NCBI GenBank assembly: GCA_966212465.1
Contig: CBIHRK010000002.1
Span: 28,806-92,805 of the forward strand
Length of the DNA: 64,000 bases
Reading direction: 5' to 3'
Source of the DNA: an uncultured Lacisediminihabitans sp.
GTDB taxonomy: Bacteria > Actinomycetota > Actinomycetes > Actinomycetales > Microbacteriaceae
Below are positions 32,485-38,908 of the stretch, piece by piece. The translations under genes and the position numbers were made by a program. Positions within the stretch are counted from its first letter, which is position 1; every line of letters begins with the position of its first letter. The notes beneath the pieces were generated by a model. The model was not told where the DNA came from. It worked only from the letters and a program-made list of their open reading frames with translations, and made no database searches.

Positions 32485-33183
32485 ATGAACAACTCGATGA
32501 AAAAGGCTGCGATCGCGCTCGGCGCGGGTGCGCTGCTGGCCGTTGCCATCCCGCTCTCCGCGAGCGCTCACGTGACGGTGACCCCGTACACGGCGAAGCC
32601 GGGCGAGTTCGCCCTGGTCACCTTCAAGGTGCCCAACGAGTCGGGAACGGCCTCCACCACGAAGGTCGAGATCGACCTCCCGAGCGACACGGCGTTCCAG
32701 TACGTCAGCTACGTGCCGGTTCCCGGCTGGACGGGCGAACTGGTGACGACGACTCTCGACAAGCCCATCAAGGTGGAGGGCAACGAGCTCAAGGAGGGCG
32801 TCACCCGGGTGATCTTCACGGCGAATGAGGGCCAGGGAATCGCCGACGGGCAGCTCCAGCTCTTCCAGATCTCGGTAGGCCCGGTGCCGGATGTCGGCCG
32901 GCTCTACCTCCCCACCACTCAGACCTACAGCGATGGCAAGGTCGTGAAGTGGTCGGACCGGGGCGGTGACGCCGAGCACCCCGCGCCGGTGCTCTACGTC
33001 AACGACGCTCCCGTGGTGAGCCATGACGAGGATGCCGAGGTGACGGCTGCGTCGCAGGCCGAGAACGCGCCGGCGGCGACCACGGATGTCGTGGCCCGCA
33101 GCATCGGAATCGGCGGCCTGGTGGTCGGCGCCGTCGGCGTCGTGGTGGCGATCGCGGCTCTGCGGCGCCGGAGCGCGGCCTGA
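32485..33183 (+). CDS. ycnI: YcnI (DUF1775) copper-binding membrane protein
   Basis: Signal peptide ...ASA followed by N-terminal His (HVTV), FKVPNES, TQTYSDG..VKW, C-terminal TM anchor. Confidence 0.88.
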   Translation: MNNSMKKAAIALGAGALLAVAIPLSASAHVTVTPYTAKPGEFALVTFKVPNESGTASTTKVEIDLPSDTAFQYVSYVPVPGWTGELVTTTLDKPIKVEGNELKEGVTRVIFTANEGQGIADGQLQLFQISVGPVPDVGRLYLPTTQTYSDGKVVKWSDRGGDAEHPAPVLYVNDAPVVSHDEDAEVTAASQAENAPAATTDVVARSIGIGGLVVGAVGVVVAIAALRRRSAA

Positions 33184-33185
33184 CC

Positions 33186-33782
33186 ATGGGAATCCTGAAG
33201 CGTGCGGCCGCGGTGGTGGCGATCGCGGCGGCGGCGGTGCTCGCCACGGTCTCCCCGGCGAGTGCGCACAACTACCTCGTCTCGTCGACCCCGTCGTCGG
33301 GCGAGACGGTGACCGCGCTCCCCGCGCGCTTCTCGGTGACCACCAACGGGATCCTGCCGAACGTGAACGACGACGGTTCGGGGTTCGCGCTCCTGGTTCG
33401 GGACGCCGACGGCCGCTACTACGGCGACGGCTGCGTCACCGTGCAGGGCGCCGGCATCTCGATCCCCGCCGTGATCGGGAAGCCGGGCGCCTACACGATC
33501 ACCTGGCAGGTGATCTCGACGGACGGGCACATCGTCTCCGACACGTTCCCCTTCACGTGGGCCCCCTCGGGCGCGGCGAAGGAGAGCGCGGGGAGCACGC
33601 GGATCCCGGACTGCCACGGCAGGGTGCATCCGAACTCCTCGGGCGTCACCCAGGGCACCGGCTCGAGCGCCGTGTCGGACGACACGCTGGTCACCGTGCT
33701 CTGGATCGGCGGAGCCGTGCTCGCGGTCGGTGCCGCAGTGGTGGTCACGCTGCTGGTCATCGGCAGGCGCAAACGCGCATGA
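33186..33782 (+). CDS. copC: CopC-family copper-binding protein with C-terminal TM anchor
   Basis: ASA-HNYLVSSTP N-terminal His, WQVISTDGH motif. Confidence 0.9.
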   Translation: MGILKRAAAVVAIAAAAVLATVSPASAHNYLVSSTPSSGETVTALPARFSVTTNGILPNVNDDGSGFALLVRDADGRYYGDGCVTVQGAGISIPAVIGKPGAYTITWQVISTDGHIVSDTFPFTWAPSGAAKESAGSTRIPDCHGRVHPNSSGVTQGTGSSAVSDDTLVTVLWIGGAVLAVGAAVVVTLLVIGRRKRA

Positions 33783-34507: not shown

Positions 34508-35128
34508 TCAGTCCTTCTTTCCGGTCGCGTCGAGGTTCGACACCGCGTCGTCTGTTCCGCCGCCGCCGACGACCTCGTCCGCGTGCTCGCGGAGGTGATC
34601 GACGAAGCCGTACTCGAGGGCCTCCTTGGCGGTGAACCAGTTGTCGCGGTCGTTGTCGATGAGCACCTGCTCGACCGTCTTGCCGGTCTGCTCGGCCGTG
34701 AGCTCGGCCATGCGCTTCTTCATGTCGAGGATGACGCCCGCCTGGGTCTGGATGTCGGCCGCCGTTCCGCCGAATCCGCCGGACGGCTGGTGCAGCAGCA
34801 CCCGCGCGTTCGGGGTGATGTACCGCTTGCCCTTCGTGCCCGACGAGAGCAGGAACTGCCCCATCGAGGCGGCGAGGCCGATGCCCACGGTGACGATGTC
34901 GTTCGGCACGAACTTCATCGTGTCGTAGATCGCCATTCCCGCGGTGATCGATCCACCGGGTGAGTTGATGTAGAGGAAGATGTCCTTCTTCGGGTCTTCC
35001 GCAGCCAGGAGAAGCATCTTGGCGCAGATCTCGTTGGCGTTGTCGTCCCGCACCTCCGAGCCAAGCCAGATGATGCGGTCCTTGAGGAGTTGGTCGAAGA
35101 TGCTCGAGACCAATGCCGGTTGGGCCAT
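34508..35128 (-). CDS. clpP1: ATP-dependent Clp protease proteolytic subunit (ClpP1)
   Basis: [34 protein letters not shown]. Confidence 0.96.
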
Positions 35129-35143
35129 TGTGTGCGCTCCGTT

Positions 35144-36121
35144 TCAGTTATCGCTTGGTGACGAATCTATCGGAGCGGGGCCGCCCCCAAGTCGCTGTTC
35201 GCCGTGGGCAGAGCCACGGGGCCGATCGATGGAGGCGAGGGCGAATTCGCGCACCGTGACCGGGTGGATGGCCGCGCACGTGCTGAGCAGCGGCTCGGAG
35301 AGGGTCTCGGTGAGCGATACCGTCAGGGGCGATCCGTCGTGGTCGAGCGACACCCGGATGCCGGCCGGCCCCTTCTGCTCCATCGTCACCCTGAACGCGT
35401 CGATGCGGTCGTCGCCGGTCGACTCCGTGGCGAAGGCCACCGCGGCCTGCGCGGCGTTCGTGAGCGAGGTGCGACCGCGGAGGTAGCGCGGGAGGGTTCG
35501 CTCTGCCGTGTAGGCCTCGATCACGCGGTGGGATTCGGCAGCCGGCATCCGGCCGTAGAGCAGCGCGTGCGGGAACACGATCATGGTGGCCGCGAAGCGA
35601 TCGCCGCCGAGGTGCGAGCACTCCCAGGTGAGGGCGGGGTACGCCCGGGCGAGGGCGGCGACCACCGGGCGGCCCTTCACGGCGCAGCACTGATCGTGCC
35701 GGGCGTGCGTGCAGACGCAGATCACCGGATCGTCGCTGGCGACCCCGGTCGATCCGTCGAGCGGCACGTCGAGCAGCTCGGCGGGATCGTCGACGCTCCC
35801 CCAGCGCACGGACTCGACGCCGGGTCGTGCGTCCACGGCTGCCCAGCGCCACCGCCGCTGCGCTCGGCGCTCGTCGGCCCGGCGCCCGGTCCGGCGGATC
35901 GCGAGCGGGCGGATTCCGGCGCCCTCGATCCGCGCCACCAGCCGGCGCGCCAGCCCGGGGTCGAGCCGGGACTGGAAGAAGGCGTGCTCGCCCCAGGCCC
36001 CGTCGATCTCGACGAGGAACCAGCGGTCACCTCGCCCCGCCGTTCCTGCGAGCGGGTCGTCGCGCTCGAGCGAGCGGTCGCTGCACGGAGCCCAACCGGT
36101 CGACGGCAGGGCGACCGTCAT
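35144..36121 (-). CDS. Sucrase/ferredoxin-like [2Fe-2S] protein
   Basis: DDPLAGTA, WFLVEIDGAWG, VCTHARHDQCCA, WECSHLGGDRFA; ATG overlaps the JmjC stop (ATGA). Confidence 0.88.
   Translation of the reverse strand: MTVALPSTGWAPCSDRSLERDDPLAGTAGRGDRWFLVEIDGAWGEHAFFQSRLDPGLARRLVARIEGAGIRPLAIRRTGRRADERRAQRRWRWAAVDARPGVESVRWGSVDDPAELLDVPLDGSTGVASDDPVICVCTHARHDQCCAVKGRPVVAALARAYPALTWECSHLGGDRFAATMIVFPHALLYGRMPAAESHRVIEAYTAERTLPRYLRGRTSLTNAAQAAVAFATESTGDDRIDAFRVTMEQKGPAGIRVSLDHDGSPLTVSLTETLSEPLLSTCAAIHPVTVREFALASIDRPRGSAHGEQRLGGGPAPIDSSPSDN
35165..35214 (-). promoter_or_regulatory. Putative clpP1 promoter with ClgR-like site
   Basis: TAGATT -10 (35165-35170); GTTCGC-CGTGG-GCA at 35197-35210, one mismatch from the ClgR GTTCGC-N5-GCG motif. 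Confidence 0.55.
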
Positions 36122-37341
36122 CGGAGCACCAGCACGCCCTCGCGCAGCAGCCGGCGGGACACCACGAGCGACGATTCCGCATCCAGCCCGGGGAGCGCGC
36201 CAGCGGCGAACTCGTCGCCGAGGGCGAGCGCCCGGACCGCCTCCGCCGCCTCGACGGGCAGGCCGATCGTCGTGCCGCCCAGCACGATGCGAACCGTCTC
36301 GTCCACCTCCACCCGGTTGGCGAGAGCGTCCCGCCACGATACGAGTGCCTCGCCGTCGAGCTCCGCGAGCGACTCGACCGTCGCCAGGGGGAAGACCGGT
36401 TCCGCTCGCGTGGAGGTTGCGAGCATGGTGGCGAGTCCGCGGGTGACCGCCGACGCGTCAGCGGCGGCCACGGTGTGGGAGAGCCGGGCGGCGGTGTCTG
36501 CTACGAGGTCGGCGAGGGATGCGGCATCCGAGTAGTCCGTGCCGAGCGGAAGCGAGCCGCGCAGGGCCGGGTCTGCGGCGGCGAGGCCGATGAGGCGCTG
36601 CACGATGGCCCAGCGGGTGAGGGCGTTGACGCCGATCGTGAGGTGGATCGACGTGCCGCCGAGGGCGGTGGCCGAGTGGATCCAGCCTCGCGGCAGGTAG
36701 AGAACGTCGCCCGGGGAGAAGGTGGCGTCGATCGCCGGTGCGCCGGATGCCTTCGCCGCGACCTCCGCGGAGTGATCGCTCCACGGCTGGTCGCGCAGCG
36801 GGTCGGGGTGCACCGGCTCGTGGATGGTCCAGTGCTTCTGCCCGTGGACCTGGATGACGAAGACGTCGTGCACGTCGTAGTGCGGGTCGAAACCGCGCGA
36901 CGATGCAGGCGTGATGTAGGCGTTCACCTGGGCGGGGGCGGCGAGCTCGGCGCTCAGTGCCCGCGTGAAATCCGCGATCGGCTTCCAGGTGCGGTGCAGC
37001 CCCTGCAGCACGAGCGTCGCGCCCGCGACGAACTCGGCGAGCACCTTCGCGGAGTCGAGCTGATCGGCGACCTCGGCGCCGAAACCACCCGCGCTCGTGT
37101 ACCTCGACGGGTCGAGCAGGGAGCCCTCCATCGCCATGCGCACGAAGGGGGTGCGGATGCCTCGGGTGGCCACCAGCTCGTCGGCCGCGGCCAGCGAGAA
37201 CAGGTCGGAGAAGTCCCCGATCGACGGGGACAGAAGCGGCCTGGTGCCCCAGTACTCGCGCGCGAAGTCGTCGCCGGAGGTGCTGATGAGACGGGTGAGC
37301 GCGGGCCGGCGAACCGACCCGCGCCCCGATTCAGCGCTCAA
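36118..37341 (-). CDS. JmjC/Cupin_4 (ROX; YcfD/NO66-like) Fe(II)/2-oxoglutarate oxygenase
   Basis: VNAYITP, GFDPHYDVHDVF (HxD), GQKHW, YLPRGWIH (distal His), C-terminal winged-helix-like tail; TTG start overlaps the peptide stop (TTGA). Confidence 0.88.
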   Translation of the reverse strand: MSAESGRGSVRRPALTRLISTSGDDFAREYWGTRPLLSPSIGDFSDLFSLAAADELVATRGIRTPFVRMAMEGSLLDPSRYTSAGGFGAEVADQLDSAKVLAEFVAGATLVLQGLHRTWKPIADFTRALSAELAAPAQVNAYITPASSRGFDPHYDVHDVFVIQVHGQKHWTIHEPVHPDPLRDQPWSDHSAEVAAKASGAPAIDATFSPGDVLYLPRGWIHSATALGGTSIHLTIGVNALTRWAIVQRLIGLAAADPALRGSLPLGTDYSDAASLADLVADTAARLSHTVAAADASAVTRGLATMLATSTRAEPVFPLATVESLAELDGEALVSWRDALANRVEVDETVRIVLGGTTIGLPVEAAEAVRALALGDEFAAGALPGLDAESSLVVSRRLLREGVLVLR

Positions 37342-37583
37342 GCGGAACCGTCGGCCCCGCCGTCGTGACCGCCGGGGTTCGCGCCGCCGTCGGCCGTGCC
37401 CTCGCCGGCCGAGCCGTCGGCTCCGCCGTCGTGACCGCCCGGGTTCGCGCCGCCGTCGGCCGTGCCCTCGCCGGCCGAGCCGTCCGCTCCGCCGTCGTGA
37501 CCGTTCGGGTTGGCTCCGCCGTCGGCGGTGCCCTCCGCAGCGCCGCCGCTGGCGGTCGTGATGTCGTCGTCGTTGATGCTCAT
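37338..37583 (-). CDS. 81-aa Gly/Asp-rich peptide with three 22-aa repeats; candidate multicore precursor
   Basis: GGAGG SD; MSINDDDITTASGGAA + EGTADGGANPNGHDGGADGSAG + EGTADGGANPGGHDGGADGSAG + EGTADGGANPGGHDGGADGSA; TACTGT -10 at 37630-37635. Confidence 0.8.
   Translation of the reverse strand: MSINDDDITTASGGAAEGTADGGANPNGHDGGADGSAGEGTADGGANPGGHDGGADGSAGEGTADGGANPGGHDGGADGSA
37341..37535 (-). repeat. 66-bp tandem repeat x3 (coding)
   Basis: Differences between copies are mostly synonymous third-position changes, consistent with protein-level selection. Confidence 0.9.
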
Positions 37584-37661
37584 AGGGGACCTCCGAACGT
37601 TGGTGAACGCGGCTTCTGCCGCTCCCCTCACAGTACTTCGAAGCGGGCCGAAGGGAAGGGG

Positions 37662-38105
37662 TCAGTGCCAGTCGCTGATCTGAACGTCGCGTGGCGCGGG
37701 GTGGCCCGATCCGGTCTCCACCAGCTCTGTGAGACTGAGCAGGAAGCTGGCCCACTTGGTGCTGCAGTGGTACATGAACTCCACCGGCTCCGCCCAGCCG
37801 GCATGACGGAACAGCACGATGGTGTGGTCGCCGCTGCGCGCGATGCGGAACTCGACCGTGGTGCCGATCCACTCGGCCGGTCCGCCCACGACCTCCCAGC
37901 GCACCAGCTCGTCCGGCACGAGTTCGGTCACCTTCATCTCGATGTCGCCGGGGCCGAACCGGAACAGGATGACGCCGCCCACCTCCGCGGATCCGGTGGT
38001 GTGCTCCGTCCACCAGCCGCGCAGTCCGTCGATCGTCGCGATCGCCTCGTAGACGGCGCCGGGAGTGACGCCCCTCGCGCCGACCCTGTGCAGGATGTCC
38101 ACCAT
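37662..38105 (-). CDS. SRPBCC (AHSA1/START) domain protein
   Basis: VYEAIATIDGLRGWW, WIGTTVEF, FRHAGW, CSTKWASFLLSL. Confidence 0.88.
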   Translation of the reverse strand: MVDILHRVGARGVTPGAVYEAIATIDGLRGWWTEHTTGSAEVGGVILFRFGPGDIEMKVTELVPDELVRWEVVGGPAEWIGTTVEFRIARSGDHTIVLFRHAGWAEPVEFMYHCSTKWASFLLSLTELVETGSGHPAPRDVQISDWH

Positions 38106-38108
38106 GGT

Positions 38109-38450
38109 TCAGTCCTCCTCGTTCCTCTGCTTCTCGATCGCTTCCGCGATCCGCTTGATGCGCGCGAGCCGCGCGTCCCACGCCGTGCCCACGGCGGCCA
38201 GCTGGGCCACGGCGCGGGCGAACTGAGCGTCGTCGATGCCGTAGCGCACCTCACGCCCGGATGCCGCGGGGTGCACGAGCCCGGCTCGGTCGAGCACTCC
38301 GAGGTGCTTCGCCACCGCCTGTCGGGTCACGGGCAGATGCTCGCTGAGCGCGGTGGCGGTGGCCGGGCCGTTCGCGAGCAGGAGGTCGAGCATCCGTCGC
38401 CGAGTGGGATCGCCGAGTGCCGACCAGAGCACGTCGTCGATGGTGCTCAC
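38109..38450 (-). CDS. ArsR/SmtB family transcriptional regulator
   Basis: ALGDPTRRRMLDLL, VTRQAVAKHLGVLDRAGLV. Confidence 0.92.
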   Translation of the reverse strand: MSTIDDVLWSALGDPTRRRMLDLLLANGPATATALSEHLPVTRQAVAKHLGVLDRAGLVHPAASGREVRYGIDDAQFARAVAQLAAVGTAWDARLARIKRIAEAIEKQRNEED

Positions 38451-38908
38451 GCTGCGGCCAGCCGTGACACGTACGCGGCCAGGCGCGGGATGAAGTGGTC
38501 CCAGCCCGCCACGTGATCGTTGTAGGCGGCTTCGAGCACGGCGGCTTCCCAGCCGCGTTCGCGGAAGCCGGTCTCCGTCATGCGCACCCGGGTGCCCTCC
38601 CCCGCGGGCTCGAGTTCGAAGGTGACGAGGTAGGAGTTGCCGACGCCGGGCTCGACCCCCTCCTCGTAGGCCCAGCGGAACGAGAAGCGGCGCGGCGCAT
38701 CCACGTCGAGAACGGTGATCAGCTCGACCTTGTCGGTCTTCGGCGGGGCGTTGCGGAAGACGATGTGGCCCGAGGCGCCCGGCTCCGGCTCGAGCACGGC
38801 CTCATCCGGCCACCACTGGCTGAGATGTTCGGGGCGGCTGATCACCTCGAAGACGACCTGCGGTGAGGCGTCGACGTGGATCTCGCGCTCGATGCTTCCG
38901 TATTCCAT
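38447..38908 (-). CDS. SRPBCC (AHSA1/START) domain protein
   Basis: IEREIHVDASPQVVF, RFSFRW, VTFELEP, MTETGF, GWDHF. Confidence 0.88.
   Translation of the reverse strand: MEYGSIEREIHVDASPQVVFEVISRPEHLSQWWPDEAVLEPEPGASGHIVFRNAPPKTDKVELITVLDVDAPRRFSFRWAYEEGVEPGVGNSYLVTFELEPAGEGTRVRMTETGFRERGWEAAVLEAAYNDHVAGWDHFIPRLAAYVSRLAAA

Follow-up and report, generated by a model that had tools for sequence, protein, structure and literature searches.

A repeat-peptide and JmjC oxygenase cassette in an uncultured Lacisediminihabitans sp.

Our analysis of a 64,000-nucleotide stretch of DNA (hereafter the window; contig CBIHRK010000002.1, positions 28,806 to 92,805, 69% G+C) from a metagenome-assembled, Microbacteriaceae-like organism classified as an uncultured Lacisediminihabitans sp. 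identified a tightly packed three-gene cassette on the minus strand (Table 1). In the direction of transcription, the cassette encodes a small acidic repeat peptide, a JmjC Fe(II)/2-oxoglutarate (2OG) oxygenase of the ribosomal oxygenase (ROX) type with similarity to NO66 and MINA53, and a Suc_Fer-like protein. The peptide stop codon overlaps the JmjC start codon by 4 nt (TTGA, 37341-37338), and the JmjC stop codon overlaps the start codon of the Suc_Fer-like gene by another 4 nt (ATGA, 36121-36118). An initial annotation, made from the letters of the window alone, had reported both overlaps, a -10 element and a Shine-Dalgarno (SD) sequence belonging to the cassette, a 16-aa acidic segment followed by three 22-aa units free of Cys, aromatic and basic residues, an HxD...H triad with a 2OG-binding Lys in the second protein and a thioredoxin-like ferredoxin domain in the third, and it had proposed that the locus encodes a peptide that is synthesized ribosomally and modified post-translationally (RiPP), with several cores. 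The descriptive part of that annotation agrees with our results, in which cluster binding by the third protein is a prediction.

Table 1. Position of the cassette genes, the peptide segments and the upstream signals in the window
Feature	Position	Strand	Details
Peptide gene	37583..37338	minus	ATG start; 81 aa; 7.0 kDa; net charge about -15
N-terminal leader-like segment, MSINDDDITTASGGAA	37536..37583	minus	M-x-I-N-D-D-D-I-T-T plus a variable spacer of 5-7 aa
Repeat unit 1, EGTADGGANPNGHDGGADGSA	37473..37535	minus	
Repeat unit 2, EGTADGGANPGGHDGGADGSA	37407..37469	minus	
Repeat unit 3, EGTADGGANPGGHDGGADGSA	37341..37403	minus	Peptide C-terminus coincides with the unit end
JmjC (ROX-type, NO66/MINA53-like) Fe(II)/2OG oxygenase gene	37341..36118	minus	TTG start; 407 aa
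Suc_Fer-like gene	36121..35144	minus	ATG start; 325 aa
-10-like hexamer, TACTGT	37635-37630	minus	Cassette's own promoter
Shine-Dalgarno sequence, GGAGG	37594-37590	minus	6 nt 5' of the peptide ATG
Hairpin of the 5' untranslated region, GCGGC-AGAA-GCCGC	37609..37622	minus	Between the -10 element and the SD sequence; significance uncertain

Conservation of the cassette across actinobacterial families

A scan with a profile of 20 JmjC homologues, limited to one genome per species, detected relatives of the oxygenase in at least 584 stretches, each from a different actinobacterial species, and the best 80 loci were kept for comparison. These loci span Microbacteriaceae, Cellulomonas, Brachybacterium, Branchiibius, Rhodococcus, Gordonia, Dietzia, Mycobacterium asiaticum and Streptosporangiaceae, and the cassette is present in at least seven actinobacterial families. 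The initial annotation had anticipated that peptide-JmjC-ferredoxin synteny would recur with a variable number of repeats and a conserved leader, as is the case, and had named as a refutation the situation in which JmjC orthologues usually lack the peptide. Instead, in 76 of the 80 loci tblastn matched a homologue of the peptide just upstream of the JmjC gene, the remaining four carry a divergent relative, and a peptide is therefore encoded upstream of the JmjC gene in 80/80 loci (in L013 and L064 its N-terminus is cut by the contig end). The peptide stop and JmjC start codons overlap in 58 of 73 measurable loci, by 4 nt in 41 and by 1 nt in 17. A Suc_Fer homologue lies directly downstream of the JmjC gene in 77/80 loci (tblastn), and in 47 of these 77 the JmjC stop and Suc_Fer start codons overlap by 4 nt.

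Gene-context look-ups located all three genes in Mycobacterium sp. SMC-4 and in a Mycolicibacterium, and only the peptide and JmjC genes in Salinispora, Actinoplanes and Phytohabitans, that is, in 3/3 Micromonosporaceae the Suc_Fer-like gene is not in the cassette. Since this gene is sometimes missing, the minimal conserved unit consists of the peptide and the JmjC enzyme. In Lacisediminihabitans changchengi (L001, 5266-5467) the Suc_Fer-like gene is also missing and the JmjC gene is followed by clpP1 about 200 nt further on, an independent case of third-gene loss in Microbacteriaceae. The peptide-JmjC pairs of Micromonosporaceae (L084, L085, L088) adjoin a convergent gene set that includes an FtsK_SpoIIIE ATPase of about 880 aa, a neighborhood that is probably lineage synteny.

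All-against-all clustering of the open reading frames (ORFs) within 4 kb on either side of the 80 loci yielded no other cluster present in more than seven of them, and no protease, exporter or immunity gene co-occurs with the cassette in this interval, in agreement with the initial annotation, which had seen no dedicated protease or exporter. That annotation had also speculated that the neighboring Clp protease processes the peptide. A tblastn survey of the 80 loci showed that the tig and clpP1P2 context is common only to L001-L005, the five closest relatives of the window, and processing by Clp was therefore rejected as a general feature.

In Mycobacterium sp. SMC-4 (L081, 8741-12183) the cassette is followed on the same strand by genes for FecCD, an ATP-binding cassette (ABC) ATPase, Peripla_BP_2 and an FhuF_C-like protein, an iron-siderophore uptake and reduction set. 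Linkage to iron uptake as a general feature was rejected, given that FecCD, periplasmic binding protein and FhuF neighbors occur only in L081 and L082, which belong to the same species. Plasmid carriage was likewise rejected, as only JmjC paralogues of 33-39% identity are found on Streptomyces and Kitasatospora megaplasmids.

An acidic peptide of near-identical units under purifying selection

The peptide of the window consists of a 16-aa N-terminus, MSINDDDITTASGGAA, and three 22-aa units of the form EGTADGGANP(N/G)GHDGGADGSA(G), and contains no Cys, aromatic or basic residue apart from His. Tandem Repeats Finder described the gene as 2.8 copies of a 66-nt period with 93% matches (score 320); the three units differ from one another at 6-13 of 66 nucleotides, yet by a single amino acid. 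Pfam and NCBIfam searches returned no family for the peptide, no signal peptide was found in it, and no conserved cleavage motif is apparent in the family (75 species). The AlphaFold2 (AF2) model, built from a 17-sequence alignment, is disordered (mean predicted local distance difference test, pLDDT, 46.5; predicted template modeling score, pTM, 0.13), as expected for a substrate that would be bound in extended form. A self-folding repeat domain of the beta-roll type is unsupported by this predicted disorder, and metal could still induce folding.

An ORF that is short and of low complexity could be an artefact, namely a GC-rich tandem DNA repeat open by chance in one frame, and this explanation would be favored by a second frame that, in the window, likewise runs through the repeat without a stop codon and by the number of database entries (149 for the peptide vs. 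more than 3,950 for JmjC). Against this, 25 orthologues of identical length gave, in the called frame, a median nonsynonymous divergence (dN) of 0.125, a synonymous divergence (dS) of 0.93 and a dN/dS of 0.13, whereas the other two frames of the same DNA gave dN/dS values of 2.7 and 3.6. Differences at codon positions 1, 2 and 3 numbered 2861, 2954 and 10672, third-position differences being 3.7-fold commoner, and the called frame is open in 74/74 loci, vs. stop codons in the other frames in 42 and 63 loci. In addition, the start context is conserved, with an SD-like motif ahead of the peptide gene in 75/75 orthologous loci, and the amino-acid motif is kept from Microbacteriaceae to Mycobacterium. 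The peptide frame is thus under purifying selection, and an artefactual ORF is excluded by the frame-specific dN/dS, the codon-position bias and the open-frame counts.

Across 75 species, the N-terminus reads M-[SAT]-I-N-D-D-D-I-T-T, with D7 present in 75 species, D5 in 68, I8 in 67, D6 in 66, I3 in 63 and T9 in 57. The 226 repeat units of the same species share the consensus E-G-x-A-D-G-G-[AS]-N-P-x-G-H-D-G-G-A-D-G-[ST]-A, in which 15 of the 21 core positions are at least 96% invariant; Asp5, Asp14 and Asp18 are conserved in 100% of the units, His13 in 96% and Asn9 in 94%. Units are separated by linkers of 0-7 residues, and in 69 of the 75 species the peptide ends exactly with a unit, in DGSA or DGTA. 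Most species have three copies of the unit, with a range of two to five in isolate genomes: two in Curtobacterium (L049) and mycobacteria, four in L061 and five in Branchiibius (L068, L078). Peptides with a single unit (35-40 aa), likewise coupled to a JmjC gene, are encoded on short contigs from metagenomes. Since contigs assembled from short reads break within the repeat, these versions may be artefacts of the assembly.

The divergent relative found in four loci has the form MALDDDDMVTSG...EGPADGGA.GT.GV(H/Q/S)DGGADGGADGG.... Peptide identity between families is 75-90%, vs. 47-66% for the JmjC enzyme. An exhaustive profile search of 1.84 billion representatives recovered 109 peptide clusters, all of them small proteins, and the long matches that could have been natural peptide-enzyme fusions (P0403, P0382, P0376, P0413 and P0388) were rejected as frameshifted gene calls. 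These five, together with P0135, are chimeras in which the peptide or JmjC frame alternates with an Arg-rich out-of-frame translation. The peptide locus is systematically mis-assembled and mis-annotated, most copies being labelled 'hypothetical protein' or left uncalled, and the peptide is therefore under-called.

A NO66-like oxygenase with an intact active site

The JmjC protein matches the Pfam families JmjC_2 (1.7e-28) and Cupin_8 (5e-11), and NCBIfam gave no match for any of the three cassette proteins. In a profile search of the PDB, the best match was human NO66 (7e-27), followed by MINA53 (3e-23), Rhodothermus cupin-4 (5e-12), Bacillus subtilis YxbC (1e-11) and Escherichia coli YcfD (1e-9), placing the cassette enzyme, by sequence similarity, closest to the eukaryotic histidyl hydroxylases NO66 and MINA53. 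In the alignment, H154, D156 and H222 correspond to the Fe triad of NO66 (H340, D342 and H405) and K169 to its 2OG-binding Lys (K355), and all four residues, as well as Y142, are invariant in 81 sequences. Y142 aligns with Tyr328 of NO66, which together with Ser421 positions the substrate His (PMC9994133). The enzyme also has an HxT motif in strand 8 (H233-L-T235), a feature noted for the bacterial relatives close to the eukaryotic enzymes (PMC2938197), and its profile alignment to Rhodothermus cupin-4 (4csw) extends to residue 386. The architecture of ROX enzymes further comprises a helical dimerisation domain and, at the C-terminus, a winged-helix domain.

The four enzymes that are paired with the divergent, His-poor peptide carry the substitutions L101A, R127G, Y155F (inside HxD), P186E and D245A at positions that are otherwise at least 95% conserved. 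These clade-specific changes match the divergent peptide, and the enzyme and the peptide therefore co-vary.

On plasmid p1 of Streptomyces sp. W1SF4 (L091, 1-5152), a RiPP operon ends with the gene for a JmjC paralogue that is 39% identical in the catalytic half. Other products of this operon, an uncharacterised cluster, are a TOMM precursor leader peptide-binding protein and a thiopeptide-type bacteriocin biosynthesis protein.

A variant of the Apd1/Aim32 class as third protein

The Suc_Fer-like protein belongs to Pfam PF06999 (1.8e-17), and its AF2 model (pLDDT 81.6, pTM 0.80) has about 100 central residues that superpose on thioredoxin-like [2Fe-2S] ferredoxins in Foldseek (1m2d, 1f37 and 5abr; probability 1.00, TM-score 0.65-0.68 on the target), the matches including Aquifex Fd4 and Azotobacter FeSI. 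For the N-terminal domain and the four-stranded C-terminal domain, Foldseek returned no solved analogue. Invariant residues comprise C137-T-H-A-R-H-D-Q-C-C146 (C-x8-C), S-H170-L-G-G-D174, C13 and C282. The ligand motif of Aim32/Apd1 is CX8CXnHX3H (PMC8482512); the bis-histidinyl pattern CX8C...HX3H is absent here, the fourth position being the invariant Asp174. On its residue pattern, the third protein is a predicted Cys2/His/Asp ligand variant of the thioredoxin-like [2Fe-2S] proteins of the Apd1/Aim32 class. It shares with them PF06999, the central fold and the CX8C...HX3 pattern (PMC8482512), and differs in the last ligand (H170-L-G-G-D174, with Asp rather than His), in the additional invariant C13 and C282, in its extra N- and C-terminal domains and in being dispensable in some lineages.

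The initial annotation had inferred that this protein supplies electrons or a second reaction. A 2OG oxygenase needs no external electron donor, and the gene is not obligatory, being absent from 3/3 Micromonosporaceae cassettes and from L001. Because no external reductant is required and the Micromonosporaceae cassettes lack the gene, we treat the Suc_Fer-like protein as an accessory.

Likeness to characterized enzymes and peptides

The cassette enzyme resembles the ROX enzymes NO66/RIOX1, MINA53/RIOX2, YcfD/RoxA and Rhodothermus marinus cupin-4 in its JmjC double-stranded beta-helix, its HxD...H triad, its 2OG-binding Lys 13 residues past the Asp and its HxT in strand 8, as well as in a candidate target context, Gly-rich with Asn ahead of His, like that of Rpl8 (GGGNH*QH) and Rpl27a (GNAGGLH*HH; PMC9994133). 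Unlike ROX genes, the cassette gene is in every case coupled to a small, dedicated repeat peptide, and its product therefore probably acts on something other than a ribosomal protein; several identical target sites per substrate molecule would be new for the family. A further difference from NO66 is that the position of Ser421 is occupied by an invariant Gly.

Two JmjC hydroxylases of RiPP precursors have been proven experimentally, CzlI (curacozole, Phe18 to Tyr; PMC11575548) and BipG (biphenomycin, ornithine hydroxylase; PMC12707348). As in the cassette, these JmjC Fe(II)/2OG enzymes are encoded beside a ribosomal precursor peptide, czlI directly adjoining the precursor gene (PMC11575548, PMC12707348). 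In their pathways, the JmjC enzyme is accessory to a class-defining cyclodehydratase, radical SAM enzyme or MNIO, and the clusters contain proteases or transporters, whereas in the cassette no enzyme other than the JmjC protein is universally present, the core is a nearly invariant repeat, and there is no protease or exporter. Furthermore, CzlI is YxbC-like and the cassette enzyme is NO66-like.

PqqA, the precursor of pyrroloquinoline quinone, and MftA, that of mycofactocin, are short, widely conserved ribosomal peptides that are encoded first in a compact operon with a modifying enzyme and whose product is used in the producing cell. From this established knowledge, the cassette is alike in that a conserved short peptide is encoded first, together with a modifying enzyme. 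The PqqA and MftA systems rely on radical SAM chemistry, a single core and dedicated peptide chaperones and peptidases; the cassette, unlike them, shows no sign that a small-molecule cofactor is excised.

A probable dedicated hydroxylase and its candidate substrate

The universal adjacency of the two genes, their translational coupling, the co-variation of their products and their shared promoter show that the peptide and the JmjC enzyme are functionally linked. Taken together with the enzyme family and the intact active site, this makes it probable that the cassette encodes a dedicated JmjC hydroxylase and its own peptide substrate, yielding a modified intracellular acidic peptide. We infer the chemistry, the substrate role of the peptide and its physiological role as follows. 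The enzyme would recognize the N-terminal MxINDDDITT, the repeat itself or both, and would hydroxylate one side-chain carbon per 21-residue unit. The likeliest site is C-3 of the near-invariant His in N-P-x-G-H-D-G-G, favored because of the family relationship and the sequence context: the known His substrates of ROX enzymes, GRGNAGGLH*HH in Rpl27a and FGGGNH*QH in Rpl8 (PMC9994133), are both Gly-rich and have an Asn shortly before the target His, like DGGANPxGHDGG, a similarity that is a resemblance only. His as the target in each core, as listed in the initial annotation together with Asn and Asp, does not hold everywhere; the repeats of one clade contain no His, which rules it out as a target common to all. 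The alternative site is one of the three invariant Asp residues, which the His-free clade would require. The product would be a poly-hydroxylated, strongly anionic peptide with one to five identical modified sites, and the [2Fe-2S] protein a frequent, dispensable accessory that may carry out a second redox step or be a partner of the modified peptide.

This product would act intracellularly, either intact or as fragments the size of a repeat; an intracellular location is the most likely because there is no signal peptide, protease or exporter and because the core is almost frozen across families. The same features argue against an antibiotic-type RiPP, and an antibiotic role of the peptide is unlikely. 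A core this conserved fits a small protein with a conserved physiological function, or else a peptide of the cofactor or metal-binding type, and the most plausible role would be the binding or buffering of metal through beta-hydroxy-His or beta-hydroxy-Asp and carboxylates.

Several observations weigh against an enzyme-substrate pair. Every characterised ROX enzyme targets a ribosomal protein (PMC9994133). The equivalent of NO66 Ser421 is Gly237, invariant in 81 sequences, and a single-sequence PDB search with the C-terminal 171 residues of the enzyme alone returned no significant match, leaving the winged-helix part unconfirmed. His is absent from every repeat of L060 and is replaced by Gln, Ser or Arg in some repeats elsewhere. 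Translational coupling implies that enzyme and peptide are made in approximately equal amounts, an unusual ratio for an enzyme and its substrate. Moreover, 15 near-invariant positions in 21 exceed the usual constraint of substrate recognition; the unit probably has a function of its own. Finally, that hydroxylation takes place, at which site, and that metal is bound are points that we infer.

Two other readings were weighed, both of them unlikely. The presence of a leader-like segment and one to five near-identical cores with short variable linkers is what would be expected of an exported, processed multicore RiPP, in which the N-terminus is a true leader, housekeeping proteases excise each hydroxylated 21-mer, and the product is a ribosomal siderophore, a metallophore or a signal. 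Beta-hydroxy-Asp and beta-hydroxy-His are classical Fe(III) ligands of siderophores made by nonribosomal peptide synthetases (NRPS); in SMC-4, FecCD, ABC, Peripla_BP_2 and FhuF_C genes of iron-siderophore uptake directly follow the cassette, and the paralogous JmjC protein of plasmid p1 is encoded in a genuine RiPP operon. However, the iron-uptake neighborhood is limited to one species, no protease, exporter or immunity gene accompanies the 80 loci, the peptide has neither a signal peptide nor a conserved cleavage motif, its linkers range over 0-7 residues, and its core is almost invariant across families, unlike that of secreted RiPPs, although the cofactor-type PqqA and MftA are alike in this respect. 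Comparably improbable is that the peptide serves the enzyme as partner or regulator, whether by inhibiting it as a pseudo-substrate, as an acidic chaperone or by delivering metal, and that the true JmjC substrate is a ribosomal protein, as for YcfD, NO66 and MINA53. All characterised ROX enzymes hydroxylate ribosomal proteins, and replacing the target His with Gln or Asn turns ROX substrate peptides into inhibitors (PMC9994133); some natural repeats have Gln at the His position, and translational coupling fits a 1:1 complex. The multiplication of the unit in tandem (2-5 copies) is nevertheless hard to reconcile with a 1:1 regulator, the motif looks more like that of known ROX substrates than like an unrelated binder, the peptide co-varies with the enzyme, and the closest paralogue is found in a RiPP operon.

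A sensing module has a very low probability. By analogy with FIH and PHD enzymes, the hydroxylation state of the peptide would report the availability of O2, Fe(II) or 2OG, and the [2Fe-2S] protein would read this state or add a redox input. JmjC and PHD hydroxylases are oxygen sensors in eukaryotes (PMC10371230); in addition, a redox-active [2Fe-2S] partner is co-encoded in most lineages, and the conserved, intracellular module lies apart from biosynthetic gene clusters. This idea is wholly speculative, the Fe-S partner is dispensable in Micromonosporaceae, and the 4-kb flanks of the 80 loci contain no linked output domain such as a transcription factor or kinase.

Returning to the dedicated hydroxylase and its peptide, part of the multicore RiPP interpretation of the initial annotation stands, namely the conserved leader-like segment and the repeated units; with 15 of 21 positions nearly invariant, the core is too conserved for a diversifying natural product. 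As in RiPP clusters, a short peptide gene lies beside that of a putative modifying enzyme (80/80 loci). A conserved MxINDDDITT, a variable spacer and one to five cores would fit a division into leader and core, the leader role being putative. A dedicated protease or transporter, typical of RiPP clusters and not universal among them, is missing, with no conserved fourth gene within the 4-kb flanks of the 80 loci. As for the assertion that no characterised RiPP class has this enzyme pair, we found no prior description of the cassette in the literature searched, including a 2010 comparative-genomics survey of JmjC proteins; JmjC enzymes as such are known in RiPP pathways from CzlI (PMC11575548) and BipG (PMC12707348). 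Proteins and RiPP precursors are thus already known as targets of JmjC hydroxylases, and the cassette would be a new RiPP-like class if the modification were confirmed. We propose such a class tentatively, as a possibility rather than an expectation: a stand-alone NO66-type JmjC hydroxylase would be the class-defining enzyme, beta-hydroxy-His, beta-hydroxy-Asp or both would be formed at every frozen 21-residue unit, and the product would be an intracellular metal ligand (a buffer for iron or another metal, or a chaperone acting with the Cys2/His/Asp [2Fe-2S] protein) conserved across Actinomycetota, including fast-growing mycobacteria. It would provide the first ROX substrate that is not a ribosomal protein and the first ribosomal route to the hydroxy-amino-acid ligands of NRPS siderophores.

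Should the peptide prove to be the substrate, the targets of bacterial ROX-type JmjC enzymes would include a second class, outside the ribosome, and for the bacterial branch nearest to human NO66 and MINA53 there would be a natural model substrate that is genetically paired with its enzyme. A new modified peptide would also be defined. Its near-frozen sequence suggests a basic function in the physiology, possibly the metal handling, of genera such as Rhodococcus, Mycolicibacterium, Microbacterium and Cellulomonas.

Expression signals and neighboring genes

The -10 element and the SD sequence reported in the initial annotation recur in the orthologous loci. A TAnnnT hexamer, mostly TACGCT, lies 40-75 nt 5' of the peptide start in 47/75 loci, vs. 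11.5 ± 3.0 in shuffled sequences. A scan of the window for E. coli-type consensus promoters gave no match, which is expected because the consensus is that of E. coli and the host is a high-GC actinobacterium.

A hairpin with a stem of 5-10 bp and a loop of 3-7 nt, starting between positions -53 and -28, is present in the 5' untranslated region of 43/75 loci, with stem sequences that vary, and a search of the peptide 5' untranslated region against Rfam gave no match to a known RNA element. It could be an mRNA-stabilising or regulatory stem-loop, or due to chance, such hairpins being common by chance in GC-rich DNA.

A GTCAA(C/T)CC box located about 60-75 nt 5' of the peptide start recurs across distantly related genera: in Agromyces (L020, L022, L037, L039, L040, L041 and L058), in Rhodococcus (L052, L056, L057, L074 and L075) and in four further loci (L002, L010, L055 and L071). 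It is not evident in the upstream region of the window itself. A regulator or an alternative sigma factor may bind this box, which could help to define the regulon.

Between tig and the cassette, the minus strand of the window (37662-38908) encodes an ArsR-family helix-turn-helix regulator (38109-38450) flanked by two AHSA1/SRPBCC-fold proteins. This context is not conserved, as an ArsR homologue is found near the cassette in only 4 of the 80 loci. On the plus strand (32485-33782), two neighboring ORFs encode secreted or membrane-anchored proteins that, from their sequences, look like a copper-binding pair of the YcnI/DUF1775 and CopC types, a pair without linkage to the cassette in other genomes. 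Downstream of the cassette, only 15 nt separate the Suc_Fer stop (35144) from the clpP1 start (35128); this interval contains a GGAG, no terminator-like site was found in it (window 35128-35146), and in the source organism the cassette is probably co-transcribed with clpP1 and clpP2.

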